Assembly (NCBI RefSeq): GCF_021730395.1 | Contig: NC_069369.1 | Location: forward strand, 29,741,250 to 29,805,249 | Direction of reading: 5' to 3' | DNA from: Mercenaria mercenaria | Lineage: Eukaryota | DNA length: 64,000 bases | In this document: positions 1,441 through 62,635 of the stretch, piece by piece | Layout of the letters: each line of letters begins with the position of its first letter | How positions within the stretch are numbered: the stretch's first letter is position 1 | Translations under genes and position numbers: made by a program | The notes under the pieces: model-generated | Told to the model about the DNA's origin: nothing | Databases searched by the model: none | The model's input: only the letters and a program-made list of their open reading frames with translations

Positions 1441-1667
1441 GAGCTGTGCCATGAGAAAACCAACATGGTGCATTTGCAACCAGCATTGATCCAGACCAGC
1501 CTGCACATCCGCGCAGTCTGGTCAGGATCCATGCTGTTCGCTAATGGTTTCTCTAATTGCAACAGGCTTTGAAAGCGAACAGCATGGATCCTAACCAGAC
1601 TGCGCAGGCTGGTCGGATCCATGCTGGTCGCAAATGCAATATGTTGGTTTTCTCATGGTGCGGCTCA
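1441..1667. mobile_element. MITE family A, copy 1: a ~225-bp near-perfect palindrome with termini gagccgcaccatgagaaaaccaacat...
   Basis: The two ~95-bp arms are reverse complements around a ~35-bp spacer. The same element recurs six more times in the window. The listed ORFs 1425..1622, 1553..1798 and 1557..1775 are palindrome artefacts. Confidence 0.85.
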
Positions 1668-3356
1668 TTTAACCTCACAAGTCCTGCATTAAATAAACCT
1701 GGTGCTTTTTTTGTTCTCAAATTGTTTGCAACAGTGGCCAAAATTACTAAAATCAATTTTTTTTCTTCTAACTGATCATCTGAAATCATATGTGACAACT
1801 CGATTATAAGTCAGACTTATATATTTCATTGTATTATTTGATTGGCAAAATGTAGACTTGTGTATGAGTATATGTAAGTAATAATGTGTAGTTTTGCTGA
1901 CATTTTCGATACATTTTGCTGCCTCATATATACATGAAAATAAGTGATAGCACCGCTATTAATACATGTACACAGTTCAAAATACTACAAGTACACAATG
2001 AATGAATGAATGATGCAATGCAAAATATATGTAGATAAGAAAGTCTTTACATGTCTGTATATTAAGGTAGTCGTTCACCTCAGACAGCCTTTACGTCACT
2101 AGTTTGGAACAGTTAAGGTACATTTCGCATTTGTTTCACAAATCTTAAAACTTAAGCATGTAGTATCAACATCTCATTCTTGTTCTAATCATTTAATTCA
2201 TACATAATTCTTAAGTGATATCTATATGACGACACCTGCCTATACTCCACAGCAGACTTAAAACAGAAACTGAATATTAAAATTTGTGCACTTGCTGGTA
2301 TTACGTATCTACAAGGTGCAGCAAATTGCAAATACAAACTTCCTTCGCTCAAACTCGAATAATTTGAATATCGCCCTTCACTTGAACTCACTGTCAGGTC
2401 CGACAAAATCCCTGTATTATGTAAATGGTTCGATGACTCGAACAGCTGACAACTCCAAAAATTTTGCCGATCCCAACAAGTTTGAGCGAACGAAGTTCGA
2501 CTGTACATTTATTCTTTCTTACACATACACACCATCCAAAATAACTCCAGTAAGACTTTGTAGTTATGTATCTAAAATAGGTTATCTATTTTACCAGTCA
2601 ATGCATATTGTTAACATGCATAAACGGTAAAGTTACTGTCGAAAGAAACAGACATAACACGTGCAAGCATTCACACACACTGGTGGTCATGCAGACATTT
2701 ATTCAGTGTTTGTAGAGCGTAACAGTCACAGATTTTTTTTCTATAATTTTGTAAAGTGGCATGTATACGACCTTAATATATCTACATCTACCATTTCAGA
2801 TCAATTTGAAAAATAACAATGCCATTAAACAAAATTTACAATATTGATATGAGCAGTGTGCTTAGAAAAAGGGACAAGCTTCCTAGATAGAAGACTTTCA
2901 TTATTTCAAACTACATGTAACTATAACTTACTGTAATAATTAAATTTTATCAGTGAATGTACCATAGGATCAGACATCTGTAACTGTAATTCTTTTGGTG
3001 GGAATGGAAAAAAAAAAGCTCACTAAAAACCCCTTGAAAATCAAATTGCAACCGTGTTTTAGAAACTGGATGTCCAGTATATACCCATTTATGTACATTT
3101 TATACATGTCTACCATCAGCTAAGTTAAAGATAAAATATGCAGGTTCTTCAAGGATATGTAAAAATTTATCTCATAACATTTTAATTTATATCTCATTTC
3201 TTTTAGTAGCATAAAATACCTCAAAAGATCAGTGGTGCTACAAGTAAAATCAACCCTGAACACCATTAATACTTAGATGCAATCAGTATAACACGTCTCC
3301 CAATCTGTCATAATGGGATCACCATCAGGGATCTCAGGTGCTGCCAACTACATACA

Positions 3357-3600
3357 AGGGGCCTCCGTGGCCGAGTGGTTAAGGTCGATGACTTCGAATC
3401 ACTTGCACCTCACCAACGTGAATTCTTCATGTGAAGAAGCCATCCAGCTGGCTTACGGAAGGTCTACCCAGGTGCATGATGAAATAATGCAGAGAGGGGC
3501 ACCTTGGGTCTTCCTCCACAATAAAAGCTAAGAAGTCGCCATGTGACCTTAAATTGTGTCAGTGCAACACTAAACCCAACAAACAAACAACATCTAGGAT
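3357..3600 (+). mobile_element. tRNA-derived SINE, copy 1 (head ggggcctccgtggccgagtggttaaggtcgatgacttcgaatcac)
   Basis: Box-A/box-B-like tRNA head. The same element recurs inverted at 9661-9906 and 31706-31915. ORF 3313..3531 is an artefact. Confidence 0.75.
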
Positions 3601-6358
3601 ATTTGTTTGTTTTCGGTGAATAAGGAATATATCTAACAGTCTAGAGACAATTTTTGCACTTTCATGGGCACACAGTGCAAGTAAAAGTAAGAAAATTGTC
3701 TCAGTTCAAGGTAAGAAAATTCCATCTTTATGAAAAACAAATTTTCTTTTTAATTTCTGCAAACTTATGAGAGAAAAGGCTAAAAAGTAATCCAAAATTA
3801 TATCATTCACAGTGAGGAATACATATTTAACTGACAAAATGAAGTATTTCAATAAAAACACTTTTACGTTAATACTTAGTTGAAGTTTTCAGTATAACGT
3901 ATCGCCCCATCTGACATACTGGGACTTACATCAACAACTTCAGAGTGCTGGCACTCTGCACTAAAGTCTTGAATCGTCACCGCGGCAACCAAAATATTTT
4001 AACATTCAATGTTGTCTTGTAACTAGTAGCACAGAAGGCATGAAAATAACAAAGAAATAAAATGATAGTATCAGTTTGCTAGATCTATGGAAACTTGATG
4101 GTCTGTACAGTTTGCAAATGAACGACATGATGATAAAAAAACAACAGAACTAATGCAGTACTAATGCAGGTGACAAAAAAAGATGCAAATTTCTTCTAAC
4201 AAAACTTGACAAACATTTTGATTCTTGAACGAAGTTATGTACATAATCTTCATTAACACAAACTGCAAGAAAATGATGTAAAAACAACACATAACCACCA
4301 AAATAGCTGTTTTCCCCCTTTAGCATGATATGATTTGACCTTGAAATACTGGGCACGGGTACTACTCTTTCATACATAATGTATCAGGAATTTGTACCGT
4401 TAATAAATTGTGTCTACGAGACGTGTTTGTCTCTTAAAACATAAACCGGCTGTTTGGAACTAACAAGGAGCTGTAGATTCCCCAAGTCAAATCATGCTAA
4501 ACCAAAGTTTTAAAATGATTACAAAAAACATGTGTTCAATGAATGAGATCTTAACATAGCACAAATTGAAAGGTACTTTACAAAACCTAAATATTAGTGA
4601 AGAAATACAAAATTATGCATCACTGTTAAAAGATAATGAAGAGAAAGTTTTCAATTTATCACTGGCACTTTTCATTAAAATAAATATTTGTTGACATTTT
4701 AGAAGAACTTAGCTCGAAAATCATCTCCCCCTCTTGTATTCAGCCAAGACTAAATTCTCAACTGGATGTTACCAGCACAGGCATTAAAACATGTTTATGT
4801 AAAACGTGTGACATTTAATATGATCTTTAATCTTATTTTTCTCTGAATATCTATAATCAGGAACACAAAACAGAAGCGAGAGAAGTAACGTTAAAGACGG
4901 CCATACCTGAAATGTTTGTACGGACCGATTTTGATGTAGGATACGCAAAAGAAGAAACATGCGATGATACAAAACAAATTTAGCACACTAGTCTTATGGG
5001 GCTTAAAGAACAAAACTGCAAATTTAAATAATGCTGAAACAACAAAGAATGCAATTTATGAAAATTGTAAATTTTCAGCTGGTCCCCGACATAAAAGTTC
5101 ACTACTAACCGTAATAAGCAAGAACAGAAAATTTAAAGAAATAATGAACAATTGGTTTACTACACAATTTTTTGTTTGCAACTTTGGCAGAGGGAACTAA
5201 AAATACCGAAATAACTAAGATTAAATCAAAATGGTACAGCAGCTTCATCTGTTGACATATAATATGCAAGACATTTACAGACCTGGGATACAGTCAAAAA
5301 CCAAAAGCTTGAATCTACATTCTGAATCCTTCACTTTTCTTATTTTAGTAAGAGTTACCTCGGGAAATTCTGATGGTCACAAGCCTGAAATTAGGACTAG
5401 TCTGGAAAAATCCCAGGCCTGGAAGACGAGGTAGGCCCTTGAAATGAATCTTCACTGTTATGATAAATTCAGTCATTCTAAAAATACACACGTCAACTTT
5501 CAAAAAAGTGACTGTAATTGTAACAGACATTTTGATTGGCTGATCCATCTGTCACATCCAATTAAAGAACCTTACGTTGGTATAAATTGGTAAACTTGAG
5601 CTGCAGAAATGATAAGGTTGTGATGATAAATTCAATTCAAACAAATTCGCTCCAAAAATACTTGTTTTTCCTTGTAGTAGAATGGTTGCTTGACAACATC
5701 CATAGGAACACTGGAGCTACAACAGCAAATAAAAATTACTACATGCTCACAGCTGTCATGGTCCAAGATTTTGCACATCGGTGATCGTGTCTTACAGATG
5801 TAATAAATTGCAGGGTAATGTCTTCTCATACATCAATCAGTCTGATTTTTGTAGTAATTTTCTGTCCCACATCTATCTTCATACCTCTCTATATAGACTA
5901 TGGCATTATCCGTTACCTGTTTCATTTATGCATAACAATTTCTGATTGCGTCTCTTTACATCGTAAATGAAAAAGATGCAGAAACGTGTGTACAAACAGT
6001 CAACTAATAACTAACTTCAACACTTAACACTTACACAATTGTTCACGGAATACTTTCACAAATGTTTACGTACGAGACATAATGAATAATGATCTTACGT
6101 CAACGACGTCTTTAGTTGACAACTGAATGTTTCTCTCCGACAACCGCTTTGCATTAAGTTCACATGGCAACATATCTTTTCAGATTCAGTCACATAATCT
6201 GGTATACAAAGTTTATTCTTAAAAAAACTTTGACCACACATTGTTTATATTTTGCAAAAAAAATCCTGTTACAAAAATGAGGGTGAATACTCCATGCTTG
6301 TGTGTGTGTGAATGATTTTCACAATGAGATGTGTAGGAAGAGAGAATGGCATGTATTA

Positions 6359-9989: not shown

Positions 9990-10620
9990 TTAAGAATGGG
10001 CATCAAATTTAAGCACTTTTTAAGACTGAATGAAACCCTGAAGAAGTTGTTTAAAGGTTTTTCAATTTTAGTTCTTGGTAGCCCCTACCAGAAACATTTA
10101 AATAAAGGTCACAGGCCAATGGTGAAGATCTATCAAGCAGTTCATTACAAGTTGTTTCAAGTTATTTTTATTTTAGCTCTGACAACCCCTTACAAGCAGA
10201 ATCATCTAAAAAGTTTGGTAAAGATCTATCAAGTAGTTCATTGAAGTGTTGTTTTTCTCTCTTTTTTTTTTAAGCTGCAGCAGCCTCTAAAAGCAGTTAA
10301 GTTAAACCATTTTAACAAACTTGTGAGAACCATACAAGGACACTATTAACCAAGTTTGGTTAAGATTCATCCAGTGGTTCACGAGTTCATTCTGTTTCTA
10401 CTTTTAGCTCTGGCAGTCCCTAAAAGGGGCCGAGTAAAACCATTTGAGAGGACCACGCAAACATACAGACCAAGCTTGGTAAAGATCCATCAAGTGTTTC
10501 ATAAGAAGAAGTTATTTAAAGGTTTTCGTATTTTTAGTTCTAACGGCCCCAAAAAGGGACCAAGCTGAACCACTGTAACAAAATTGAGAGCTACATGCCA
10601 GGATGCATTAGTTCAGGTAA
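9990..10620 (+). repeat. Satellite D array (~130-150-bp monomer: tttttagctctggcagtccctaaaaggggccaagt...accaagtttgatgaagatccatcaagcagttcatgaaaag)
   Basis: About five degenerate tandem units. ORFs 9996..10244 and 10356..10568 are artefacts. The same family recurs at 35930-36650 and 37205-38010. Confidence 0.65.
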
Positions 10621-10973
10621 AGTAAAATTCTGACCAGCAATTTCAGAGGAGAGTGAAGCAAAAATGTTGGCGTAAGATGACATACACAAGACAATGGACA
10701 CCAGATCATCAACCTACATTGTATAAAAAAATAATTTTCCAACAAACCTGATAACAAGCTGTTTTTCCACTCCCTGAAGTCTTTTTAGCTTTTTTTAAAA
10801 AACAAATGTATATATAAACACAATATAAAAGTACTATACTTGCAAAAATACAAACAACTCCAATCTTAATGGCCAAACCAGTTCACCATACATCCAAATC
10901 TTCACCAGATATACAGTTGTGATACGACCAGTAACCATAGCTACAGCACTATGACCGACCGTCCGTCTACTCA

Positions 10974-11195
<222 letters not shown>

Positions 11196-11444
11196 TTATC
11201 CAAATTTTATGTACTGTTCATAGCAAATACATAAACTCAAAACACAGATTGGTGTGAAATGTAAAAAAAACGAGAATTTTACACAACAGACAGTTTATTG
11301 ATAGATAAAATGGTCATAAAATTTGGAAACAAATTCAATTAGTAATGGTCTGTTAACATCAAAATATTCTGAAGTGCTTGATTAGTTGCAAAATCTGTAT
11401 AGGAAAGAATCAAGCAAGGAAACTTTGAAATGAAGACATGATTT

Positions 11445-11644
11445 GAGCCGCACCATGAGAAAACCAACATAGTGCATTTGCCACCAGCATGGACCCAGAC
11501 TGTTCGCTAACGGTTTCTCTAATTGCAATAGGGTTTGAAAGCGAGCGTTATGGATCCTGACCAGACTGCGTGGATGTGCAGGCGGGTCTGGATCCATGCT
11601 GGTCGCAAATGCACTATGTTGGTTTTCTCATGGCGCGGCTCATT
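11445..11644. mobile_element. MITE family A, copy 2
   Basis: Same termini and arms as copy 1. Lies in CtBP intron 4. ORF 11382..11597 is an artefact. Confidence 0.85.
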
Positions 11645-12093
11645 TATACATGATCCAACAACCGCACAGAAATATCTGCACAGTTTCTTGACAATACTGT
11701 GAAATCATTAATATTCGCGGGGGGGGGCTAATTTTCTTGATTTCGTGGTCAAGTAAATACACAAAATTTAAACTCAACAAACAAGCAAAATTCCCATGCA
11801 TTTAATGTTCAAAAACTGAAATCCATGAATTCATATCCCCATGAAATTGCCGTTTTGACCAAAACCACGATATTTCATGCCCACAAAATTAAATTTTACA
11901 GCAACAGTTACTAACAAATTTAAATACATCCTATTTAAAGTTATCATTTAAAATCGTCCCAAAGAAATATGATCCAGATATATCTCTATAATACATCAAC
12001 AAATTGAAGTACCTAAAATTTAACTTGTAAATCACTAGATGAATGAAACTACTGAGCCCCAAGGAATCACAATCATGTACTTGTTTTTAATCA

Positions 12094-12444
<351 letters not shown>

Positions 12445-12767: not shown

Positions 12768-13790
12768 GAGCACCGCCTTGCGGGTGCTGACGCTCATCTG
12801 ATTTTTTTTGTATAATAGAAATATTGTCCTATCCATGATTTTCTAAGTCTAAAAAGGGCCATCACTCTTGCAAAAAGCAGGATAGAGTTATGTTTCTTGA
12901 TGTACAGTGTCCACTTATGATGGTGAAAAACTGTTGCAAGTTTTAAAGCAATAGCTTTGATAGTTTATGAGAAAAGTTGACTTAAACATAATATTCAACC
13001 AAGAAAATGATTTTTCTAAGTCCAAAAAGGGCAATGATTATTGCAAAAAGCAGGATGGAGTTATGTTGCTTGCTGTACAGGGTCAGCTTATGATGGTGAA
13101 CAAGAGTTGCAAGTTTTAAAGCAATAGCTTCGATAGTTTAAGAGAAAAAGTTGACCTAAACATAAAACTTAACCAAGAAATCTGATATTTTCTAAGTCCA
13201 AAAGGGGCCATAAATCTTGCAAAAAGCAGGATGGAGTTATGTTTCTTGCTGTACAGGGTCAGCTTATGATGGTGAACAAGTGTTGCAAGTTTTAAAGGAA
13301 TAGCTTTGATAGTTTAGGATAAAAGCTGACCTAAACATAAAACTTAACCAAGAAAACTGATTTTCTAAGTCCAAAAGGGGCAATAATTCTTGCAAAAAGT
13401 AAGATGGAGTTATGTTTCTTGATGTACAGGGTCTGCTTATGATGGTGAACAAGTATTCCAAGTTTCAAAGCAATAGCTTTGATAGTTTAGGAGAAAAGTT
13501 GACCTAAACATAAAACTTAACCAAGAAATCTGATATTTTCTAAGTACAAAAGGGGCCATAAATCTTGCAAAAAGCAAGATGGAGTTATGTTTCTTGCTAT
13601 ACAGGGTCAGCTTATGATGGTGAACAAGTATTCCAAGTTTCAAAGCAATAGCTTTGATAGTTTAGGAGAAAAGCTGACCTAAACATAAAACTTAACCAGG
13701 CAACGCCGACGCAGACGCCGACGCCGACAACCGCTCAAGTGATGACAATAACTCATCATTTTTTTTCAAAAAATCAGATGAGCTAATAAA
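12768..13790 (+). mobile_element. Composite tandem-repeat element (TR-MITE / Helentron-like): 5' hairpin (caagagcaccgccttgcgggtgctgacgctc), five ~183-bp monomers, a (GCCGAC)n microsatellite and a conserved tail
   Basis: Monomers ttctaagtccaaaaagggcca...gcaaaaagcaggat.gagttatgtt... The 3' end runs ccgacgcagacgccgacgccgac...aactcatcattttttttcaaaaaatcagatgagc. Sits in CtBP intron 3. ORFs 13264..13643 are artefacts. Confidence 0.65.
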
Positions 13791-14512: not shown

Positions 14513-14613
14513 CTAAAACAAGATATAACATCACTTTTTTGTAACAAAGAGGAGTTTGTAAAACACATGCCCCCATGATCACCTGTGGGAGGTCAATGGG
14601 TATTAACCTTTAG

Positions 14614-14805
14614 CCTGCTGGCGGGAAGAGATTCTGCCTTTGCGACCAGTGCAGACTAAGATCAGCCTACACATCCGTCAGTCTGATCATGGTCTACACT
14701 GTTCGCCATTCAGTCAGTATCTTTTTGTTAAGTGTCCCAGTTATTGGTACTGTCCAAATTTAAAGATGGACGTCCATTTTAGAAATTTAGCATGCTAAAG
14801 GTTAA
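14614..14805 (+). mobile_element. MITE family B, copy 1 (~195 bp, TTAA-ended, ~15-17 bp TIR TTAACCTTTAGCCTGCT), in CtBP intron 2
   Basis: ttaacctttagcctgctggcgg...gcatgctaaaggttaa. The central palindromic core gatcagcctacacatccgtcagtctgatc is shared with family A. Confidence 0.8.
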
Positions 14806-16502: not shown

Positions 16503-16701
16503 CTTAACCTTCATCCTGCTAAATTTCTAAAATGGACTGGTCCATCTTTGCATTTGGGCAGTACCACTTGTTTATCAGAGGGGTGTTCACTGAAAATTTA
16601 CTAACTGAATAGCGAACAGTGCAGGCACGGATGTGCAGGCTGATCTTGGTCTGCACTGGTAGCAAAGGCAGGATCACTTGCCGCCAGCAGGCTTAAGGTT
16701 A
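16503..16701 (-). mobile_element. MITE family B, copy 2
   Basis: Reverse orientation of the copy-1 consensus, ending ccgccagcaggcttaaggttaa. Confidence 0.8.
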
Positions 16702-17639
16702 ATGCAGGTTTGACAGTTGTATAAAAGCAGAAAATCTATTAGTGCAAAATGGAACAGAATTCCCCATGCCTCTAGGTTTAACTGACCATCCAGACTGATT
16801 ATACGGCACGCAAGAACTTACTAGTGGCTGGTACGTCTAGTCTCGGTCTCTTCACTGGTTGAAACGTTTTGCCGTTTTCCATGAAGCGTGGAGTCACCTC
16901 CACTCAGTAATATATGTAAACCAGAATCACACCCACTTCTTAGCACTCACTGTAGACAGCCTATAAATAAATAAACCACTTGTCTGTATAAACTTTATCA
17001 CGATTATATTTTTTGTAACAAAATCTTTCATCATTTTTTGGTTAAGTTGGGTAAAAATGTACATTGTTTCTTTCCATTTTAAATAAAAACTTTCCAGGAT
17101 TGAAAAGAGGTTTTGCACGTTTTTTTTATATTTTATTATTATTTATATAAATTAACACTAGAAATATTAGTAGGGCATGCACTGTGAATCTACTCTACCT
17201 TTATGCCTATTAGAATAATCTCTGTTTGACAGAAATGATTTAATAGCCACACATGTAGATCCACACTTCACAAAGCACTTCTTATTACAATATTGTAAAT
17301 TGCCCAATACTGTTACCTTCATTTCACAAACTGTGATAATAGATTTTGCAAAACTAGTACTATTATGCACTTTTTTCCCCTGTGCTTTTAGCATTTTTCT
17401 GAAAGAATTATCATATGTCAGTTTAATTGTATAACTAGGAAAGAACAGTTACTGCAATCACTCAAGACTTCCTCCTCACACTAAGGTTTAAAGGGAATGC
17501 CCTTATATGGTGTTCAGCTGTCAACAAAAAGCAAAATGGTAACAGACTGTAACCTTGAGCATCTGTGAAGATATATCATGTTTATCTTGAAAGATTACTT
17601 CTTATAATGTGCTCAGTCACATTTAAGGTTCAAGTTATC

Positions 17640-21639: not shown

Positions 21640-23060
21640 TTTAAGAAGATATTTCACAACGATTAATATCCATCCAGAGCCACACAAATCATAAAGTGCC
21701 CTCTTCCAAAATTCATTAAGAACCACAGATTTCAACAAGATCTTTCTGCTGTCATCTAATACAACAATTTCATCCAGTGCTTTCTACTGATATTCTTCCA
21801 GAAACACACATTTTCAACATTTCATAGAGTGCTTTTTATTAATATTCTTCCAGACCCAGAGATATCATCAAGTGCTTTCTACTGATATCCTTCCAGAACT
21901 ACAAATGTCATCAAGTGCATTCTACTGATATCCTTCCAGAACCACAGATGTCATCAAGCGCTTCCTACTGATATCCTTCCAGAATCACAGATGTCATCAA
22001 GCGCTTTCTACTGATATCCTTCCAGAATCACAGATGTCATCAAGCGCTTTCTACTGATATCCTTTCAGAATCACAGATTTCATCAAATGCTTTGTACTGA
22101 TATCCTTCCAGAATCACAGATGTCATCAAGTGCATATTCTACTGATATCCTTCCAGAATCACAGATGTCATCAAGTGCATATTCTACTGATATCCTTCCA
22201 CAACCACAGATGTCATCAAATGCTTTGTACTGATATCCTTCCAGAACATAGATATCATCAAGTGCATTCTACTGATATCCTTCCACAACCACAGATGTCA
22301 TCAAATGCTTTCTACTGATATCCTTCCAGAACCATTGATGTCATCAAGTGCTTTCTACTGATATCCTTCCAGAATCACAGATTTCATCAAGATCTTTCTG
22401 CTATCATCTAATACAACAATTTTGTCCAGTGCTTTCTACTGATATTCTTCCAGAAACACACAGTTCAACATTTCATAGAGTGCTTTCTATTGATATCCTT
22501 CCAGAATCACAGATTTCATCAAGATCTTTCTGCTATCATCTAATACAACAATTTTGTCCAGTGCTTTCTACTGATATTCTTCCAGAAACACACAGTTCAA
22601 CATTTCATAGAGTGCTTTCTATTGATATCCTTCCAGAACTACATATTTCATCAAGTGCTTTCTACTGATACATGTATTCTTCCAGAACCACAGATCTCAT
22701 CAAGTGCTTTCCAGAACCACAGATCTCATCAAGTGCATTCTACTGATATCCTTCCAGAACCACAGATCTCATCAAGTGCTTTCTACCGATATCCTTCCAG
22801 AACCACATCTCACCAAGACTCCTTTCAGAACCACAGATGCTTTCTACTGATATCCTTCCAGAACCACAGATCTCATCAAGTGCTTTCTACTGATATCCTT
22901 CCAGAACCACAGATCTCATCAAGTGCTTTCTACTGATATCCTTCCAGAACCACAGATCTGAGATCTCATCAAGTGCTTTCTACTGAAATCCTTCCTGACG
23001 CACATATCTCATCAAGTGCTTTCTACTAAAATTTCTTCCAAAACCCACGTTCTCATCAAG
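21640..23060. repeat. Minisatellite H: ~37-42-bp unit (catcaagtgctttctactgatatccttccagaaccacagatgt), about 35 copies
   Basis: Obvious tandem periodicity. ORFs 22130..22936 are translations of the repeat. Confidence 0.85.
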
Positions 23061-24559
23061 TGCTCTCACCTGTTTATCAATCCGAATCATCTCATTTCAT
23101 CCACATGAATGTGATAACCATACAAATTCAAACAGGTTTTACTGATGATATCAGATCAGACAATTTATTCATTCAGACACTTAAATTTCCTCAGAGCCCA
23201 CACACCATGTTGCAGCAGACTTTTCTGTCTGATAATTGTTATCATTTCCGTGTCACAGCATGTTACATGAATTGTGACAATATATATATATATATATACA
23301 CCATGATCACAAAACCCATTTCATGCTCAATTCACATGTCCACCTCGCGTTGATTTATCATAGCGAAAATAACTTTTTGTTAAAAGTTTTACACCATTTT
23401 TCAAAATAATTTAGATTACATGACAGTGGTCTGTTTTTCTATTCACTTTTCCTAGAGTCTGCACCATTACTTCAGACTTGTTCTCCACAGGTAGATGACA
23501 ACTTACCCACATGAAAATTAAGTGGAGGTACTGGTAGAATGATTTCAGATATATTTGTCTTTTGTGTAATTGCCTCAACTGCGTACATAAAACCTCAACA
23601 TCTCTTGTTTAATATAAACAATCATTATTCTCTTGGATGGTTATCTATTATTTTCAATAGATAGCTAATAGGAACAAAGAAATGTAATTCCATACTAAGT
23701 ACATGATTTATCAACTTCGCTATAACTATTGTAACATGCTACAAACAGGTAAAACATTTCAATAAATTCCACTTGCCTTGTGATTCAGACTCTATCCAAT
23801 TATATACTTTACTAAACTGCACTTTGCCAAATTTCCTTGTTATAAATATCCTAAGTTATTATTACATGAATAAAGAATACACACTCGTTAAACACTGATA
23901 AAGACGCCTTTAATATTCAGTTAACGGTAGTCCTACTACACAGTGTTACATGAATGACCTGCTATTATTCGGAGTTAGTTATTTTAAACACACACACACA
24001 ACAAACACTTCCTAAATCGCTCTTTATATGACTTGTGCATTCAAGCCTGACAGCTCTACTTCAAACAAGTTCATGATCAGGTTACCCTGCACCAAAGAAA
24101 ATGTTATTAAGATAACAACATGTACACACCGATCTACATGTACACAAAATCTTCAGATAATCATTCAAGGCTGGAGTTAACATTTCAATATGCAATGAAA
24201 CAGAAGAGTTTACCAATCTTCAAGATAACCTGATAAATCTTCCTTTGATATGTTGTGTAATAGGTTTTTGTTATTCATACACAATTAAACAGCTAAACAT
24301 CAAAACAGGTGGAGTAAAGAAAACACACAGAAACAAAATTAAAAATAAGGCTTCTGTAAATATTTCTTCTAAATAAAGTTTATCATGACTAAGAAAACAA
24401 ATCTTGACTGCCAGAAAGGCATGAACATTTTATTGTACAAATTTATCACTGAAATGCTTTCTGGTAGAATCCAGACTGAACAAGGGGCACTCCATCCTAG
24501 CCAAATAAAGGTACTGTTAAAATAACCCTATTATATCATAACATTTGTGAGTCCACAAA

Positions 24560-31670: not shown

Positions 31671-31675
31671 GGGGT

Positions 31676-38975: not shown

Positions 38976-39178
38976 CCTTCCTAAATTTCTATAATGAACT
39001 TGTCCATCTTTCAATTTGGACAGTACCACTAACTGTTAAAAGAGGTGCTTACCAAAAAGATACTGACTGAATGGCGAACAGTGCAGATCATAATTAGACT
39101 GCACGGATGTGCAGGCTGATCTTGGTCTACACTGGTCGCAAGGGTAGAATCACTTGCCGCCAGCAGGCTAAAGGTTAA
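38976..39178 (-). mobile_element. MITE family B, copy 4 (complete)
   Basis: ttaacccttaccttcctaaatttc...ccgccagcaggctaaaggttaa. Confidence 0.8.
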
Positions 39179-40033
39179 CAAATGTCCACTCCTTCATTCA
39201 TACCATCTGCTTTTACGAGTTTCATAATTTAAGTAAACTTATTTTTCTACCTTATATCCGTATGCAAAATATATTACAGTCATGTACATCCTTTAAACTT
39301 TCTCTTATCTCCCTTTGAACAAAATGCAAGCTCTATGAGTTTGGCCTAGTTTCGCTTTTATCAGGTGAAGTTATTATTCAACTGTCAAGAATGTTGGGAT
39401 AATAACAATCTACACATGTACTAGATATGTAGATATACAGGAAACTTGTACCAAAACATGTACAGTATCGGTTAACATTCAAGATCAAAACAAGAGCACT
39501 CCACAGTGAATAAATTTTGTATGCAGGCTGCATTCATTACTTTCTCATTAAAAAAAGCAAAAGTCATTATTTTGATAAACATTTTGAGGTTACCAATCCT
39601 GTTATCAATGTGAAATAAGATGATTAAAAAAGGCCGCAAAGACGACCAAAATTAAAATTAATGAGACCTATTTTATGCATAAAGAAGATGATTTGCAGTA
39701 TGACAATTTTAGGAATGTTTCATTGCTTCAATTAACACACACCTGCTTTAATCATGTATATATATTACAAAGTGGGGATCATGAACAATAAACAAGGTTG
39801 ATTATTGTAATACTGTAAAATCATTTAATTCCGTGGGCATTAAATTTCGTGGTTATGGTCAGTTTCATTTAATTTCTGGGGGATAAGAATTTGTGGACAT
39901 AAAATGAATGGGAATTTTACTTGTTCGTTGGGATTAAATTTCGTGGATTGACTCAACCACGAATATTAATGATTTCACAGTATGAGGTCTTGACCAAAAC
40001 AGTTATTTTATGGAGATATGAAGGGGGTTTCAT

Positions 40034-40207
40034 TAACCCTTACAATGCTAAATTTCTAAAATGGACTGGTCCATCATTCAATTTGGGCAATACCATTTAT
40101 TATTGGAAGGGGTGTTCACTGAAAATTTACTGACTGAATAGCGACCAGTGCATGGTCTGCACTGGTTGCAAAGGCAGAATCACTTGCCGCTAGCAGGCTA
40201 AATGTTA
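40034..40207 (-). mobile_element. MITE family B, copy 5 (central core deleted)
   Basis: Both termini are present. The cagcctgcacatccgtgcagtctg core is missing. Confidence 0.7.
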
Positions 40208-40849
40208 ATTTTGAAGAAGAAAGTAGAAGGGGCTTTTAGGAATCACCCATTTTAACTTCACTTGCTACAGGAGGAGTAGACAGGGCTTGAGACCACTATA
40301 GCAGTGGGAAAGTCTTCACCTAACCCCACAAATCAATATAGGAATACTTTGAACACAAAGAATTTTAATTTTACTTATACACTGGGATTTAGCTCGATAC
40401 TTAGGCTTCTTTTCAGGTGTATCGTAAGCTAGTCTATTTTAATGTCAAGAGTTTTTGCAAAGGATTTATTTCCCCTTTATTCATTAAATTAGATACACTT
40501 GGAAGTATCTTTATTGCAAACTCCTTAGCCTTGCAAAAACATGATTTTGCAGGATGTATATTTACGTGCATGCACTTAAATGGGCATGAACAGTTCAATA
40601 CTAAGGCTTAAGGCTTCTACTCAACTTATTTTATGCTAAGGGGCCATGAACAGTATACTGTATAGTACTACTAAGATTTCTACTAAAATATATGTTATTT
40701 TAAGAGGCAACGCCAAGGCTTCTACTAAAGTGTACGTTATTCCAAGGGGTAAAGGTTTCAAGTACTGAGAAAACGTTTGATTTTGTGCGTAAATTTTTTG
40801 ACAATGTCCTTTTTTTTATTCAAAATTTGAATAAAGAATACAATCATGG

Positions 40850-41020
40850 GAATTTGTCCATCTTTCAATTTGGACTGCACCATTAACTGTTAAAAGGGGT
40901 GTATACCAAACAGCGAAGTTGCAGGTCATGATCAGATTGCACGGATGTGCAGGGTGATCATGATCTGCACTGATCGCAATGGCAGAATCAGTCGTGTCCA
41001 GCATGATATTAAAGGGTTAA
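40850..41020 (-). mobile_element. MITE family B, copy 6 (one terminus truncated)
   Basis: ...caggtcatgatcagattgcacggatgtgcagggtgatcatgatctgcactgatcgcaatggcagaatcagtcgtgtccagcatgatattaaagggttaa. Confidence 0.7.
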
Positions 41021-47554: not shown

Positions 47555-47713
47555 TGAGCCACGCCACGAAAAAACCAACATAATGGCTTTGCGACCAGCA
47601 TGGATCCAGACCAGCCTGCGCATCTGCGCAGTCTGGTCAGGATCCATGCTGTTTGCTTTCAAAGTGTATTGGAATTAGAGATACTGTTAGCGAACAGCAT
47701 GGCTCCTGACCAT
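47555..47713. mobile_element. MITE family A, copy 3 (truncated; second arm incomplete), in MAEA intron 1
   Basis: The first arm and spacer are intact. The second arm ends after gcgaacagcatggctcctgacca. Confidence 0.75.
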
Positions 47714-47839: not shown

Positions 47840-49900
47840 ATATTTTTGTGCCCCCTCCCCCCCCTCCTATTTTTCGTCTGCTGGCTCCACTCCCTATTTC
47901 CAGAGTTATGGCCCCTGAAATAGTCAAAATTGCACATTTTCACTTTGTGACACGCCTAGCTCAAAAAGTATCTGATATAGATTCATGAAACCTTGCATGA
48001 GTCTTAATCGTGATATGAACTAGCGCAGCTCCTACTTTTCATCTCGGTTCGCCCCCTATTTCTAGAGTTATGGCCCCTGAAATAGCCAAAAATGCACATT
48101 TTCACCTTGTGACACGCCTAGCTCAAAAAGTATTAAATATAAATTTATTAAACCTTGCATAAGTCTTTATCATGATATGAACATGCGCACCTCCTGTTTT
48201 TCATCTAGGTCCGCCTCTTATTTCCAGAGTTATGGCCCCTGAAATAGTCAAAAATGCACATTTTCACCTTGTGGCGCACCTAACTCAAAAGTATTACATA
48301 TATCCTTTCCGCAGCCTTAACGTACTAAAACGTATTAGCGTCTGATGGCCCTTTCACGCTTCCGTAGAAACAACATTTATGACACGAAACTTATTTTGAA
48401 AATATTTCTGAAATGTCTAGGTCTGCAGCTCTCAAATACGGTTATATCTTACATCTGAGGCATATACTGACACTCTCAGACAACATCAAAAATGACATTT
48501 TGAGCGATTTGATGAAGTTCCAAAATTATCAATGTACCCTTGGTCCGTTACGGACCCCTGTGGGATTTCTGTTTATCCAGAGCTCATATATTTTTTCATA
48601 GATTAAAAGCTGACATGCTGTACTAAAGCCCAGGTAATTTCAATTCATAATAAAGTGCTGGAAATTGGCTCCCCAATAGCGAAAAAAAAAAAAAAAAAAA
48701 TGTCCACGCGCATACATTTAGACAATCTCATCCATCAGATGTTCGTCAAAATCCCGAGACGAACCTCTGATTTATTTCTGTCGTTTATTTGGTGAGCATG
48801 CGCACTCGTAATTACTACCGGGAGAAGTTTCAGCCAATCAATGTTCGCCACTGTTTGGCACGCCGAATTGAAATTTCAAACAATATGTAAGCAAGGTAGT
48901 TGCTAACGATGGATAAAGTAGATATTCCATGACTGCGATTAATAAAGATTTATTTCTGTTATCCGATGTTAAGAAATTTACCTGAAGAAATAATAATATT
49001 CCTCGTAAGTCGGCATCGATATGAAAGGACGCGGTCATGCTTTTCACGGACGATTTTGATTGGTTCGCTACATTTTGTCGCGAAACGACGCTGATTGGCT
49101 GAAACGTTTTACCTGTAATGTAACCAAACCACAAATATCGGCGAAATGTGCCAGAGGTTCATCCGGGGAACCACGGTAGACCTCTGGTATGCGAGAATGA
49201 CATTTAGACGGTGTGACCCCTGACTATCTACGAATCAAAATGCGGCTTTCGTTTTCAAGTTTAGCATTTCTACTTTCATTTTATTTACTTCCGGAAATAG
49301 CTGAAGGTCGAGTGACGTCATTTTCTGTGTTGTCAAAAACATACGCACGCCTGGCGAGATTGCATAAATATGTGCTGGCCGTCCTAAGGTTATTGATTAA
49401 ACCTTGCATGAGTCTTTATCATGATATGAACTTGTGCACCTCCTAGTTTTTGTCTGCCTCCGCCCCATTTTTTCAGAGTTATGCCCCCTGAAATAGTCGA
49501 AAATGCACATTTTCATCTTGTGACACACCTAGCTCAAAAAGTATATGATATAAATGGATGAAAACTTGCATCCATGAGTCTTTATCATGATATAAATATG
49601 CACACCTCTTATTTTTTGGCTGGCTCCACCCCCTACATGTATTTTTAAAGTTATGGCCCATGAAATAGTCAAAAATGTACATTTTCACTTAATTATGTGC
49701 CTAGCTCAAAACGTGTTTGATGTAAATTCATGAAACCTTGCTTTAGTCTTTATCATAATATGACCTTGCAGACTTGGCAGTCTTCTTGAGTATCTTAGTG
49801 CTTATTACAGAGTTATGGCCCTTGAAATAGCCAAAATAAAGGATTTTTTGTTTGTGATGCTCATAGCTCAAAATGTATATGGCCTAGAATAATGAATCCT
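47840..49900. repeat. Satellite J (~170-bp monomer: ttatggcccctgaaatagtcaaaaatgcacattttcac.ttgtgacacgcctagctcaaaaagtat...ccttgcatgagtctt.atc.tgatatgaac) in MAEA intron 1, interrupted at 48298-49397 by a non-satellite CpG-rich segment
   Basis: Three units precede and about four follow the interruption. The monomer register resumes 8-10 bp after the break point. Confidence 0.7.
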
Positions 49901-50570: not shown

Positions 50571-50758
50571 TTAACCCTTACCATGTTGGACATGATTGAT
50601 TCAGCCTTTAGGACCAGTGTAGATCATGATCAGCCTGCACATCCATGCAGTTTGATCATGATCTGCACTGTTGGCCATTCAGTCAGTATCTTTTTGGTAA
50701 GCACCCCTTATAACAGTTAATGGTATTGTCCAAATTGAAAGATGGACAAGTTCATTAT
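50571..50758 (+). mobile_element. MITE family B, copy 7 (3' end degenerate), in MAEA intron 2
   Basis: ttaacccttaccatgttggac...gatcatgatcagcctgcacatccatgcagtttgatcatgatc... Confidence 0.7.
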
Positions 50759-51914
50759 ATTCTGTAATTATACAACTATTGCATGCTGTTTGATAAAAAA
50801 AGTTCTTGATAAATTTACTGCATTACGAGGCCTTCAGTTTTTAGCTCACCAGAGCACACAGTGTGTGGTGAGCTTCACTATCAAGAAGAGATGTGCATAC
50901 TATCTTCTTGTTCTGGTCGGATGATTTTTCAAGGAGTTATTGCCCTTTGATTATTCAACAATAGTATACTATGGTACAATTCTTGATGGCGGGTGGGGCG
51001 TATGTTCTCCGTGACGATTTGATGAAAGACATTGTGTCTGAAATCATTCGTCCTCCACCTCTGATAATTCATGTGGGGAAGTTGGCAGTTACTTGCGGAG
51101 AACAGGTTTGTACTGGTACAGAATCCAGGAACACTGGTTAGGTTAACTGCTCGCCGTTACCTGACTGAAATACTGTTGAAAAACGGCATTAAACCCAAAA
51201 CAAACAAACAAACAATTCTTGATGGAGTATTTCTCAGGAACCAATGGTTGAAATTTAGTGAAACTTCATAGGAAGCTTTACTATCAACAAGAGATTGGCA
51301 TATTATCTTAGTGTACCGGTCCGATGATTTTTCACCCAGTTATTGCCCTTTGATTATTCAACAATAGTATACTATAGTATAATTCTTGTCTGGAGTATTT
51401 CTCAGAAACCAATGGTTTGGAATTTAGCCATACTCCATAGAAAGGTTCATCATCAAGAGGAGATTATCTTCATACCAAGTTATTGCCCTTCAACAGTAGT
51501 ATATTATGGTACAGTTCTTGTCCAGAGTATTTCTCAGCAACTGCTGGTCGGAATTTAGTGAATCTTCATTGGAAGCTTTACTATCAAGAGAAGATGAACA
51601 TATTTTCTTTGTGTTTTGGCTGGATGATTTTTCACTCATTTATTGCCCTTTGATTATTTAAACATTAGTTGACTATAGCGCCATCATAGTCGGGAGTATT
51701 GCCTGGAATTCAGCAAAAGTTCATAGGAAGCTTCACTCTCAAAAGGAGGTGTGCTTGTTTTCTTCAATATCAGTTGGAATGAGTTTTCATAGAGATACTG
51801 CCCTATAAACTACTGGTATATGTGCCCAGTCATTAAATTCCACTTTTGTTCTTTTAATATTCAAATTTCGGGGAGCATCCGTCGGTTTTACCGATATTTC
51901 TTGTTTTTATCAAG

Positions 51915-52118: not shown

Positions 52119-52184
52119 GTAATTGCTTTATCATTTTTGAGACATTTCAGGTTTACCTATAAAATTGAAAAATAAAAAGAAATA

Positions 52185-52402
52185 AGCCGCGCCATGAGAA
52201 GACCAACATAGTGGCTTTGCGACCAGCATGGATCCAGACCAGCCTGCACATCCACACAGTCTGGTCAGGATCTATGCTGTTTGCTTTCAAAGCCTATTGC
52301 AATTAGAGAAACCGTTAGCGAACAGCATGGATCCTGACCAGACTGGTCTGGATCCATGCTGGTCGCAAAGCCACTATGTTGGTTTTCTCATGGCACGGCT
52401 CA
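52185..52402. mobile_element. MITE family A, copy 4 (complete), in MAEA intron 3
   Basis: agccgcgccatgagaagaccaacatagtggctttgcgaccagcatggatccagaccagcctgcacatcc... with a matching inverted arm. Confidence 0.85.
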
Positions 52403-53289: not shown

Positions 53290-54200
53290 GAATATTCATG
53301 GGGCACATACTTTTTTAGCTCACCTGAGCCAAAGGCTTAGGGTGAGCTATTGTGATCACTCACAGTCCGTCGGCCGTCCGGCGTCCGGCATCCGTCCACA
53401 CTTTCCTTTAAACATCTCCTCTTAAACCACCTAGCCAATTTTGACGAAACTTCACAGGGATGTTCCTTGGATGGTCCTCTTTAAAAATTGTTCAAAGAAT
53501 TGAATTCCATACAGAACTCGGGTTGCCATGGCTACCGAAAGGAAAAACTTAAAAAATCTTCTTGTCCAAAACCACAGATCATAGGGCTTTAATATTTGAC
53601 ATGAAGCATCATCTAGTGGTCCTCTACCAAGATTGTTCAAATTATCCTCCTAGGGTCAAATATGGCCCCGCCCTGGGGGTCACATGTTTTACATTGACTT
53701 ATATAGGGAAAAATTCTCTTGTCCAAAACCACAAAGCGTAGAGCCTCATTATTTGGCATGTAACATCATCTAATGGTCCTCTATGAAATTTGTTCAAACT
53801 ATGCCCCTGGGGCGAAAAGAGGCCCCACCACGGGGGTCCTAAATTTTACATAGAGTTATATAGGAAAAAACTTTAAAAATCTTCTCGTCTGAAACCGCAA
53901 GATCTAGAACTTTGATATTTGGCTTGTAGCATTGCCTTGTGGTCCTCTACCAAGATTATTCAAATTATTACCCTGGAGTGAAAAGAGGCCCCACCCAGGG
54001 GGTCCCAAGTTTTACATAGACTTATATAGGAAAAAACTTTAAAAATCTTGTCTGAAAGTTCAAGGCTTAAGCCTTTGATATTTGGTATGTAGCATTGCCT
54101 AGTGGTTCTCTAACAAGATTGTTCAAATTATGCCCCTGGGGTGAAAAGAGGCCCTGCCCCGGGGGTCACTTGTATGAGTTATATAGGAAAAAATACTTTT
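53290..54200 (-). mobile_element. Composite element, an inverted copy of the 32.4-33.95 kb block (tail plus (CCGT)n microsatellite at 53290-53400, conserved spacer 53400-53560, satellite F array 53560-54190), in MAEA intron 3
   Basis: 53328-53400 is the reverse complement of 33841-33950. 53400-53560 is the reverse complement of 33700-33840. The monomers match satellite F. Confidence 0.65.
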
Positions 54201-56940: not shown

Positions 56941-57153
56941 TTAACCTTTAGCCTTCTAAATTTCTCAAATGGACTGGTTCATAATTTAATTTGGGCAATA
57001 CCATTTGTTAATGGAAGGGATTTTCACTGAAAATTTACTGTCTGAATAGCGAACAGTGCAGACCATGATCAGACTGCACGGACGTTCAGGCTGATCTTTG
57101 TCTGCACTGGTCGCAAAGGCAGAATCACTTGCCGCCAGCTGACTAAAAATTAA
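56941..57153 (-). mobile_element. MITE family B, copy 8, in MAEA intron 4
   Basis: ttaacctttagccttctaaatttctcaaatggac...ccgccagctgactaaaaattaa. Confidence 0.75.
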
Positions 57154-59292: not shown

Positions 59293-60110
59293 TAGAGGAG
59301 ACATTGTTTTTGCCCCATCCGTCCGTCCGTCACAATTTCCGATCATAGTAGATGACCCCTATTGATTTTGGGGGTCACTCTGTTAAAGGTCAAGGTTAAA
59401 GGGGCCTGAACATGCAAAACCATTTCCAATCAATAACTTGAGAACCACTTGACCCAGAATGTTGAAACTTCATAGGATGATGGACATGCAGAGTAAATGA
59501 CCCCAATATGCAAAGTAAATGACCCCTATTGATTTTAGGGTCACTCTATTAAAGGTCAAGGTCACAGGGGGCCTGAACATGGAAAACCATTTCCGGTCAG
59601 TAACTTGAGAACCACTTTATCAAGAATGTTGAAACTTCATAGGATGATTGAACATGCAGAGTAGATGACCCCTATTGATTTTGGGGTCAATCTATTAAAG
59701 GTCAAGGTTGCAGCAGACAGAACATGGAAATCCATTTCCAGTCAATAACATGAGAACCATTTGACCTAGAGCCTTCAAACTTCATAGGGTAAAAGGACTT
59801 ACAGAGTAGATGACCCCTATTGTTTTTGGGGTCATTCCATCAAAGGTCAGTGTCACAGGGGGCTGAACATAGAAAACTCTTTCCAATCAATAACTTAAGA
59901 ACCACTTGATCCAGAATGTTGAAACTTATTAGGATAATTAGACATGCTGAGTAGATGACCCCTACTGATTTTGGGGTCACATGATCAAAGGTCAAGGTCA
60001 CAGGGGCCTGAACATGGAAAACCGTTTCCAAGCCATAACTTTAGAACCACTAAGCCCAGATTGTTGAAACTTAGTGGGATGATTGGACATGCCAAGTAGA
60101 TGATCCATAT
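59276..60110 (-). repeat. Satellite G array (inverted relative to 30560-31250), five or more ~150-bp units, preceded by C17 and a (CCGT)n microsatellite, in MAEA intron 6
   Basis: Monomers …gatgacccctattgattttggggtcac…aaaggtcaaggtcacagggggcctgaacatgg…. Confidence 0.7.
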
Positions 60111-60970
60111 TGCAGCCAACCATCAGTGTCTCTTTGACTTTTGCTCATGTCCCCTATTGACTTCTTGCCTATACGACTATGCATTGGGGGAGACATGCAC
60201 TTTTCTACAAAAGCATCTTCTAGTTTCTATTGTGTTCATTTAAAACAAGAATTCTGATTTACTTGATAATTATTGCCAGCCAATGAAATAGTGGCTTTTA
60301 GGTTCAGAAACCAAAAAAAGTTGTGAAAAATGAATTTTTGTCTTGCATTGTAAAATACAAAATATATAGAAAATGCTACAAAAAGCAAATGAAGATAGGA
60401 AATGTCGTCTGAAGTTTACAGGCACAGTGGAAAATGAGTGATTAAAATTAATTGGGCTAAAAAAAGTTCATTACTAAGAGTAGCATTTTCACAGATTGAT
60501 ATTTTGGTGATTAGAAACAGTAATTGTTGAAAAGGCATATCCAGCACTTGAAACTTGCTACTTACATGAGCTTGAGGTAGCATCTGCCCACCTGGCCCCC
60601 TGGCCAAGGCATTGCCCTTAGAGAGTATGGATGTGAAAGAAATACTGTGAAATCATTGATATTCATGAGGGGCAAATTTTCTTGGATTTTGTTGTTGCAT
60701 CTTTCCATGAAAATATGTCCAAACTAATAAGCAAGTTTTTCATTTCTTCTATCCTTAAAACGTGCAATCCACAAATTCATATCTTGGTGAAATCACAAAA
60801 TTTTATGCTCACAAAATGAAATGATTGACCACATTTTTTAACAAAACACACTATTTTTCAAAATTTTCTGCAAGAAATATATTTAAAAAAATTGAAGTCT
60901 GTAATTTTAACTTGGTAAATAAACCCTTCTATTAATTTTGTCAGAATTGTGCTGTAAGTTACTTATATTT

Positions 60971-61200
60971 GAGCCGCACCATGAGAAAACCAACATAGTA
61001 GGTTTGCGACCAGCAAGGATCCAGACCAGCCTGCGCCTCTGCACAGTCTGGTCAGGATGTTCACTAACAGTTTCTCTAATTGCAGTAGGCTTTGAAAGCG
61101 AACAGCATGGATCCTGACCAGACTGCGCGAATGCGCAGGCTGATTTGGATCCTTGCTGGTCGCAAACCCACTATGTTGGTTTTCTCATGGCACGGCTCAT
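60971..61200. mobile_element. MITE family A, copy 5 (complete), ending 22 bp upstream of the MAEA exon 7 acceptor
   Basis: gagccgcaccatgagaaaaccaacatagtaggtttgcgaccagcaaggatccagacc... with an inverted arm ending cacggctcat at 61200. Confidence 0.85.
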
Positions 61201-61356: not shown

Positions 61357-62095
61357 GTATCCTTTTATTAAGAGACTTGAAATCACTTTCACATTGTAAA
61401 TTCTTTTAATTTGAAGAAGCTTCATCCTCTGAAAATAATGTGTAGATTGGTACATGGGTATCTCTTCTCTAGTAGATGGGCAAGTATCCTACACTGTAGC
61501 TTGCTGTGTGCTTATAAACACTCTTAGTCAAATGTTTGTAACACAATACAAAAATTATCAAGAAAACCTTCCAAACTATAAAATCCAAGTGAAAAATGTC
61601 TCTAAACCCAACACAAAAAATAAAAACTACAAAATATTATTTTTAAGCAACTATAGTAGTCATACTAATTGTCAAACTGGTTTTGACTGCATATCCAGGA
61701 GTGATGTCGCTATGCAGGGGAGATTACTAAGATTGACTGCAAACTGATCTGTCGGTTTCTTACTGAATTTTCGATTTCTTACTGAATTTTCGATTTTTAT
61801 TGTCAAAAGGATATTTGTCATGAATTTTGATGTCACTGATGCATTTTCAAGTACCTTCTTTTAAGTTTTATATTTTAAAATGTTTACAGAGATTGGAAAA
61901 GTATTCCTTTATTCAACATTCTCATTCCATTAGAGGTACTGCACTACAAAAAAGGGCCGCGAGAACTAAAAATAGAAAATATTTTAAAAGATAGGATTGA
62001 AACGCAATATCTTGAACTCACTTATCTCAAAATTAAAGCTATTGCGAAGACATTTTCAAGTCCCATCCCAAAAACACATGCACAAAATACCATTT

Positions 62096-62302
62096 GAGCC
62101 GCGCCATGAGAAAATCAACATAGTGGCTTTGCATCCGTGCAGTCTGGTCAGGATCCATGCTGTTCGCTTTTATAGCCTATTGGAATTGGAGAAACTGTTA
62201 GCGAACAGCATGGATCCTGACTAGACTGCGCGGATGCGCATGCTGGTCTGGATCCATGCTGGTCGCAAAGCCACTATGTTGATTTTCTCATGGCGTGGCC
62301 CA
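62096..62302. mobile_element. MITE family A, copy 6 (internal deletion in the first arm), in MAEA intron 7
   Basis: The termini are intact. The first arm lacks the accagcatggatccagaccagcctgc segment. Confidence 0.8.
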
Positions 62303-62424
62303 TTTTAAGTCAATTTCAGCCAAGTGAAATGCTGGATCCCTTGAATTTGAGATACATAGTTTCATCTGTACTTCCTGGTTATTGTCTTAAGTCCATTTAA
62401 ATCAGTGTTGTGAAAAGTTTAGTT

Positions 62425-62635
62425 TAACCCTTACCATGCTAAATTTATATAATGAACTTGTCCATCTTCCAATTTGGACAGTACCATTAACTGTTAAAAG
62501 GGGTGTTTACCCAAAAGATACTGACTGAATAGTGAACAGTGCAGACCATGATCAGACTGGACAGATGTGCAGGCTGATCATGATCTACACTGGTCGCAAA
62601 GGCAGAACCAATCGCGTCCAGCATGGTAAGGGTTA
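62425..62635 (-). mobile_element. MITE family B, copy 9 (complete; TIR TTAACCCTTACCATGCT), in MAEA intron 7
   Basis: ttaacccttaccatgctaaattt...gtccagcatggtaagggttaa. Confidence 0.8.

Follow-up and report, generated by a model that had tools for sequence, protein, structure and literature searches.

Why should two transposon families with unrelated ends carry the same internal sequence? This question is raised by a 64,000-nt stretch of the Mercenaria mercenaria genome (assembly GCF_021730395.1, contig NC_069369.1, positions 29,741,250 to 29,805,249 of the forward strand; hereafter the window, with coordinates counted from its first nucleotide), over which two kinds of miniature inverted-repeat transposable element (MITE) are scattered. 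An initial annotation had listed copies of a palindrome (family A) and of a TTAA-ended element (family B), and had proposed that the two share a conserved module of ~27 bp. Using blastn with one copy per family, together with a covariance model, we recovered all the listed copies, seven of family A and nine of family B. The two families, whose transposition signatures differ, carry one and the same structured cassette, an imperfect hairpin, at the same subterminal position, and its fold is maintained through many compensating changes.

Two MITE families share a subterminal hairpin

Family A is a near-perfect palindrome of ~226 bp, and one of its seven copies is cut by the window end. Its ends read GAGCCGCGCC... 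(the termini, given in full, are GAGCCGCGCCATGAGAAAACCAACAT...). Full-length intact copies fold at -160 to -166 kcal/mol with RNA parameters, and a short asymmetric centre sets the orientation of the element. The flanks are direct 4-bp AWWT repeats. All complete copies with perfectly matching flanks, tallied over the window and related contigs, display them (8/8; ATTT x4, AAAT x2, ATAT x2), and a ninth copy, A5, has differing flanks, ATTT and ATAT. Sola2 transposons generate AWWT target duplications (ATAT, AAAT, ATTT), as described by Bao and Jurka (PMC3627910). Because the family A duplications match this rule, we assign the family, from its target duplication alone, as a probable palindromic MITE of Sola2 type.

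Family B measures ~205 bp, has CCCTTACC...GGTAAGGG ends and is inserted at TTAA. The TTAA-CCCTTACC terminus, TTAACCCTTACCATGCT, matched 7 times in the window, against 0.01 expected, and copy B9 carries perfect 13-bp inverted termini, CCCTTACCATGCT...AGCATGGTAAGGG (CCC...GGG), between TTAA repeats. TTAA is found on both sides of B1, B2, B4, B5 and B9, on the intact side of B6 and B7, and at one side only of a B copy outside the window (locus L009). Both the termini and the interior distinguish two subfamilies of B (the inverted termini of subfamily II are CCTTTAGCCTGCT), and B1 and B4 are mosaic copies. Given the TTAA target and the 13-bp CCC...GGG inverted termini, family B is probably a TTAA-inserting MITE of piggyBac type, as judged from termini and target sites. 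Autonomous Sola2 and piggyBac elements are both present in bivalves, in a survey that left bivalve MITEs unclassified (PMC10294476). With different termini and different target duplications, A and B are indeed the structurally distinct MITE families of the initial annotation.

The shared sequence proved longer than first described. Positions 29-103 of A align with positions 107-181 of B at ~74% identity, and nothing else aligns between the two families by blastn; the sharing of the ~27-bp module is thus real, but its true extent is ~76-85 nt. Its 24-nt core, CAGCCTGCACATCCGYGCAGTCTG, has 11 matches in the window at no more than 2 mismatches, against 0 expected. The shared stretch is itself an imperfect hairpin of ~70-76 nt with a 31-33-bp stem; its folding energy as DNA, -21.6 to -28.5 kcal/mol, corresponds to z-scores between -5.4 and -7.6 relative to shuffled sequences. 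Its foot, GCGACCAG/CTGTTCGC, includes a C·T mismatch and is followed by a variable middle stem of ~12 bp and an A·A mismatch that is paired in B. The apex, GATCAG-C-CTGCRC-ATCY-GYGCAG-T-CTGATC, is built of GATCAG/CTGATC, a second C·T mismatch, the 6-bp CTGCRC/GYGCAG and the loop ATCY. The A and B consensuses differ at 0/16 positions in the foot, 4/30 in the core and 12/20 in the middle stem, where the changes mostly hit both pair partners, for example CATG/CATG in A versus TGCA/TGCA in B. The stretches previously seen as distinguishing A from B form the mid-stem of this common hairpin.

The location of the hairpin is equally constant. The spacing from the terminus to TTTGCGACC is 32 nt in both families (9/10 A arms and 6/7 B ends, both B subfamilies included), and these 32-nt segments of A and B are unrelated in sequence. 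The orientation of the hairpin relative to the terminus is likewise fixed, and 9/9 B modules face the 3' terminus. The module had been described as present twice and inverted in A, and once in B, an arrangement that the 21 mapped instances confirm. All of them (21/21) sit within A or B copies, and the covariance model detected no solo module and no third module-bearing family in the window. With this model, intact copies score 31-46 bits higher on the forward strand than on the reverse, so the asymmetry of the hairpin is conserved.

Fold conservation between families and decay within them

The hairpin extends well beyond these two families. One frame of family A is open, and gene callers have consequently predicted proteins over A copies in public contigs: a search with the A-frame peptide retrieved 307 mis-called open reading frames (ORFs) that match A-type copies. 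Five further A copies, which come from a second host and combine the same module with a different centre, lie on three contigs of JGI metagenome 3300049158, and an exact-pattern scan of a single metagenome returned two A copies. Exact-pattern scans gave only chance 18-mers in viral contigs (L004, L005) and no match in prokaryotic genome contigs, and the open frame of family B, used as a protein query, yielded no candidates. A peptide profile of the B module matched 224 of 1.84 billion cluster representatives, among which the module peptide [FY]ATS.D.DQPAHP.SLI... occurs in many different surroundings: tandem arrays, elements that resemble B and have a single module, and several double-inverted families that resemble A but differ in their stems, centres and outer parts.

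DNA was obtained for 10 of the external matches, and in the loci obtained a covariance model built from the A and B modules only detected ~30 hairpins. The hairpin is carried by at least 11 sequence families, MITE-like repeats and satellites, with zebra mussel repeats and a satellite among them. One of the external loci (L017) belongs to chromosome 15 of the Dreissena polymorpha assembly GCA_020536995.1, the zebra mussel being the sole host identified. At positions 10001-12313 of this locus, a 156-bp satellite of at least 15 monomers is read as one 770-aa ORF; the core of the hairpin (DQPAHP = GATCAGCCTGCACATCC) recurs in each monomer, and near the array there is a double-hairpin element that resembles A. 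We interpret this satellite as a probable MITE-to-satellite transition. The searchable literature, to which Repbase and Dfam do not belong, contained no published description of the hairpin.

For the fold analysis, one representative from each of the 11 families was aligned over a 29-pair helix. Across the families, 90.9% of the helix cells are paired, against 24-40% when the partner is slid by 1-3 columns, and 15-16 of the 29 stem pairs have changed on both sides, a level that 0/500 shuffles reach. The apex and loop sequence is also kept across these families. Mismatches also persist, the apex-adjacent C·T being unpaired in 11/11 families, the mid-stem mismatch in 9/11 and the foot mismatch in 8/11. 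A codon-complement test points in the same direction: among 100 module instances, extracted with a strict motif from 150 representative peptides, 404/700 position pairs are compatible, against 295 +/- 8 after permutation, with many pair types per position.

Conservation between families does not extend to the individual insertions. In family A, differences from the consensus amount to 7.2% in the core and 3.3-5.6% in the stems; in family B, to 5.7% and 7.2-11.4%, respectively. Within families, the core is thus no better conserved than the stems, and substitutions accumulate evenly. Whether the core is conserved relative to the rest of the element therefore has a split answer: it is not among inserted copies, but it is between the family consensuses, where core and mid-stem differ as given above. 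Deletions of at least 7 nt inside the hairpin affect 7/21 window modules. Such deletions are expected for palindromic DNA, and their excess over the rest of the element, given the few copies, is only suggestive. It follows from this decay that any constraint acts on source copies and not on resident ones, and for most insertions the decay speaks against a host function.

Copies in the window and their surroundings

The family A copies range from intact to truncated. A1 (1441-1666, + strand, 226 bp) has ATTT on both sides, an intact module at 1470-1545 and an inverted one at 1571-1637 whose apex lacks ~8 nt. A2 (11445-11641, +, 197 bp), also with ATTT on both sides, has its left module cut to 11474-11511 by an internal deletion, and its right module at 11537-11612. 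A3 (47556-47712, -) is truncated at one end and keeps ATTT at the intact side; its module at 47585-47660 has the top covariance-model score, 99.8 bits, and is accompanied by a partial second module at 47686-47712. A4 (52184-52401, -, 218 bp) is flanked by AAAT on both sides, with modules at 52213-52288 and 52314-52372, the latter with its apex deleted. The differing flanks of A5 (60971-61198, +, 228 bp) enclose modules at 61000-61068, with a deletion in the 3' arm, and 61094-61169. A6 (62096-62301, -, 206 bp; ATTT on both sides) has a left module cut to 62132-62171 and a right one at 62197-62272. Finally, GAGCCGCGCCATGAGAAAA at 63982-64000 is the start of the seventh copy, whose remainder is cut off by the window end and for which no strand is assigned.

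Among the family B copies, B1 (14603-14805, -) includes TTAA at both ends and a module at 14636-14710, and its termini and interior look like a mosaic of the two subfamilies. B2 (16504-16702, +), a subfamily II copy with the terminal inverted repeat CCTT.A.CCTGCT and TTAA at both ends, carries a module lacking 14 nt at 16608-16669. B3 (25797-25989, -), of subfamily I, has decayed termini and a module at 25821-25896 (93.3 bits). In B4 (38966-39178, +; TTAA at both ends; module 39070-39145), a subfamily I 5' end is joined to a subfamily II 3' end, which suggests a recombinant between the B subfamilies with a switch at or near the hairpin. B5 (40033-40208, +), again of subfamily II with TTAA at both ends, has lost the apex and retains a hairpin remnant at 40137-40175. 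Two copies are truncated at the 5' end, B6 (40850-41020, +; 3' end GGGTTAA; module 40909-40983) and B7 (50571-50760, -; module 50604-50679). B8 (56941-57152, +) belongs to subfamily II, with its module at 57045-57120, and B9 (62424-62636, +) to subfamily I, with its module at 62528-62603. A6 and B9 are only 123 bp apart, the kind of setting where exchange between A and B could occur.

The window has 35% G+C and many 136-175-bp tandem arrays. A CtBP-like exon with a dehydrogenase fold (PF02826) lies at 12091-12426 on the - strand; the DNA is accordingly of animal origin, and the elements lie in or near introns. This exon and its intron flank are 93-95% identical in DNA to an ENA metagenome contig (L003), presumably from a sister species. 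Comparison of the window with this contig gave no empty site for A2, the intron being not alignable between the conserved flanks. On its reverse complement (197-268), the contig contains a 67-bp miniature that is flanked by TTAA, has termini like those of B (CCCTTAACCTGC...GCAGGATAAGGG) and lacks the hairpin; ends of the B type can therefore exist without the cassette.

Two satellite families, represented by the arrays at 30573-31186 (136/280 bp) and 59347-60112 (145/167 bp), are shared with positions 566-3464 of the zebra mussel chromosome 15 locus at 72-82% identity. Short arrays of 155-175-bp repeats, which resemble satellite-like arrays of bivalve mobile elements, occur at 12835-13698, 32645-33694, 33942-34407, 38304-38635, 47892-48302, 49407-49741 and 53543-54193; those at 32.6-33.7 kb and 53.5-54.2 kb are inverted relative to each other, with 268-nt arms that are 83% complementary. 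A 43-bp tandem repeat of ~28 copies, with higher-order periods of 104-132 bp and a GC skew of -0.30 to -0.33, occupies 21719-23064.

Possible roles of the hairpin

With a confidence slightly better than even, we favour the view that the hairpin is a portable cassette of non-autonomous transposons, retained because its folding helps the element. The cassette would pass between non-autonomous elements by recombination or by template switching during repair; exchange between elements does occur, since mosaic B copies show it. It would be kept in the source copies that multiply, where folding would aid the spread of the element, and it may help mobilisation or amplification as a subterminal DNA structure, a cruciform or a hairpin in a single strand close to the end where the transposase binds. 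The modular exchange initially proposed fits this picture, with a module set between unrelated flanks and B4 apparently recombinant near the hairpin. The other initial proposal, a maintained functional site such as a small-RNA hairpin, agrees with a fold maintained by compensatory changes over 11 families. The mode of action is close to balanced: a subterminal structure at the DNA level is narrowly the likelier, an RNA-level role following closely. Three observations tip the balance slightly to DNA: the constant spacing from the end, the absence of strand bias and the occurrence of deletions within the hairpin.

Several considerations weigh against this view. The 11 families are related by descent, so independent compensatory events are fewer than the cell counts suggest, and core conservation is partly a matter of ascertainment, the search for other families having been anchored on the core; the stem covariation is unaffected by this anchoring. 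Chance or common descent could account for the identical 32-nt spacing. We know of no need for an internal hairpin in cut-and-paste DDE transposition. As transposases of the Sola2 and piggyBac types are unrelated, a common role in cis would have to involve either a host factor or an effect of structure alone. The ORF scan of the window found neither a transposase ORF nor an autonomous partner of A or B. The 22-nt RNAs predicted from related zebra mussel hairpins fit an RNA role at least as well.

More tentatively, DNA transposons of bivalves might have in this hairpin a functional 'core domain', comparable to the conserved domains of short interspersed elements (SINEs) but structured, and selected in several superfamilies either because the fold is needed for mobilisation to be efficient or because it is a microRNA (miRNA)-type precursor that seeds a small-RNA family with a common 5' end, CAGGCUNAUC.

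Could the hairpin instead be a neutral relic? In this scenario, which we regard as rather improbable, the families descend from, or have recombined with, one abundant ancestral palindromic MITE, and arm-to-arm copying (template switching, quasi-palindrome correction or post-excision repair) keeps the palindrome without any function. The core is unprotected in inserted copies, some hairpins carry internal deletions and recombination occurs, as the mosaic B copies attest, all of which would suit such a relic. Four adjacent A/B changes mirrored on the other arm (CATG/CATG versus TGCA/TGCA) are like a single templated event, and in some families the mismatches have been perfected (L014:4247, L017:5465). 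However, a correction process able to give 15-16 compensated pairs should also erase the three single-base mismatches, which are kept at the frequencies reported above. Nor does it explain why the CpG-rich apex is kept in the family consensuses while the mid-stem turns over, or why the strand asymmetry is conserved. A and B could also be deletion derivatives of one larger known element, having ~80 nt in common at the same distance from an end, but their unrelated termini, their AWWT versus TTAA targets and the lack of alignment outside the module contradict this idea, which had been named initially as the case against a shared module and which we find scarcely credible.

An RNA role on its own is a quite improbable explanation. 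The hairpin, transcribed for example from introns, would be a pre-miRNA-like substrate of Drosha and Dicer; the conserved apex would set the place of the cut and provide the seed, the first bases of the 3' product (CAGGCUNAUC...), the remaining stem would be free to vary if paired, and the constraint would bear on the small-RNA output, to the benefit of the host or of the element. In size and shape the hairpin fits, at ~70 nt, with a stem of 31-33 bp and internal mismatches that are conserved, but its loop has 4 nt only. A miRDeep2 table for the zebra mussel (supplementary file 2 of the 2026 preprint bioRxiv 10.64898/2026.07.10.737777) contains related hairpins as weak "novel miRNA" loci, with what seem to be ~20 or more predicted precursors of the superfamily, a count of string occurrences and not of parsed entries. 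One of these precursors has the mature sequence CAGGCUAAUCUGGGACGACACU, a score of 240 and 484 reads; the core of another, GACCAGACUGUGAGAUUGCGCAGGCUGGUC, resembles that of A, and the hairpin at L017:5465-5541 is of the same type, with 53 bits. In that table, the related loci have 5-484 reads, against up to 647,722 for true miRNAs, and lie in both orientations, in the output of an automatic predictor run on repeats. Zebra mussel hairpins of the superfamily may thus be transcribed and cut at a low level, possibly as a by-product. These loci belong to related hairpins and not to those of A and B themselves, whose processing into small RNAs is weak and putative. In molluscs, a dedicated small interfering RNA (siRNA) pathway was not found (PMC12479628; bioRxiv 10.64898/2026.07.10.737777) and the miRNA pathway is kept (PMC12479628), in line with an RNA role. 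By contrast, G·T and A·C mismatches number 15 versus 10 across families and 17 versus 33 across copies; G·U is not in excess relative to A·C on either strand and no RNA-strand bias is seen, hence no sign of selection on one transcribed strand. Selection for a small-RNA output, moreover, cannot easily act on selfish source copies. Rfam gave no match to a described family over the whole window at the gathering threshold, and a permissive Rfam scan of 62050-62700 returned only chance-level miRNA matches, the best being mir-767 with 26 bits against a threshold of 90.

Finally, the apex and the foot could be candidate sites in duplex DNA for a dimeric protein, a transposase domain or a host factor, with hairpin formation being irrelevant. 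The apex is a nearly invariant inverted repeat of two 13-nt half-sites with a 4-nt spacer, the foot reads TGCGA...TCGCA, and both lie at a constant distance from the terminus. The ends of piggyBac typically bear asymmetric subterminal repeats, and its C-terminal zinc-finger domain binds subterminal TGCGT motifs. We nonetheless find duplex binding very improbable, as it leaves the compensating changes along the 20 bp of intervening stem unexplained, and as the same cassette is found in ends of the Sola2 and piggyBac types, whose transposases are unrelated.

Several known systems come near to the cassette. Modular or chimeric MITEs, such as the bivalve 'pearl'/DTC84 elements, also have interchangeable modules, with flanking 'cassettes' and different internal parts (PMC3879986), and chimeric Sola2 elements of amoebae form families that share one end and differ elsewhere (PMC3627910). 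Here, by contrast with modular MITEs, the module is a single covarying hairpin common to elements with different transposase signatures, and the DTC84 palindrome, TTGTCCGGACAA, is unrelated to it in sequence. SINE central domains (CORE, V, Deu, Meta, Nin-DC and others), widespread in bivalves, are likewise conserved internal domains, with no assigned function, across otherwise differing families (PMC11481361). Unlike SINEs, A and B have the inverted termini and target duplications of DNA transposons and no tRNA-like head. SINE domains are not known to covary as hairpins. The subterminal repeats of piggyBac, which are 19 bp long, offer another parallel, as its asymmetric ends bear a palindrome-like repeat tens of bases inside the 13-bp terminus, and the B hairpin lies 32 nt inside one end only. 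The cassette is, however, far longer than the 19-bp repeat, covaries as a stem and is also found in Sola2-type elements. In MITE-derived miRNAs, transcribed palindromic MITEs fold and are cut to ~22-nt RNAs, and the related zebra mussel hairpins are similarly predicted miRNA loci. Human mir-548, for instance, derives from Made1. MITE-derived MIR genes of plants are, by its title, the topic of PMC10004981. In those cases, however, the whole MITE is the hairpin and the host recruits single loci, whereas here a nested sub-hairpin is conserved over many transposon families. In no compared system is a hairpin that covaries, and that sits at a fixed subterminal position, also shared by different transposon superfamilies.

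Other identities were rejected. A SINE with a conserved domain is at odds with the absence of tRNA-like sequence in a tRNA scan and with the inverted termini and target duplications, which equally exclude an IS200/IS605-like element (subterminal hairpins, without inverted termini or target duplication). Helitrons and Helentrons make no target duplication, insert at AT or TT and have a hairpin at the 3' end; the present elements have 4-bp duplications, are symmetric and carry the hairpin 32 nt inside the end and on both A arms. Bivalve Helentron and DTC84 palindromes are unrelated in sequence and position. An independent nested mini-MITE was dropped, as there are no solo module copies, and so was a relic of a Fanzor/TnpB guide-RNA scaffold, for which there was no evidence at all.

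What would a retained cassette mean for these elements and their hosts? If the hairpin is neutral, it is a record of how palindromes last and move from one repeat family to another and into satellites. Alternatively, it may be a transposon-borne source of miRNA-like hairpins in molluscs, animals without a dedicated siRNA pathway. MITEs are usually held to need their termini only, and an internal cassette kept by compensatory evolution would, if true, change that; its fixed distance from the end and its presence across unrelated transposases would then indicate that the amplification of MITEs includes a shared step which depends on structure or on the host. A 70-nt hairpin with defined mismatches is also a testable object for zebra and quagga mussels, in which genetic tools are sought.

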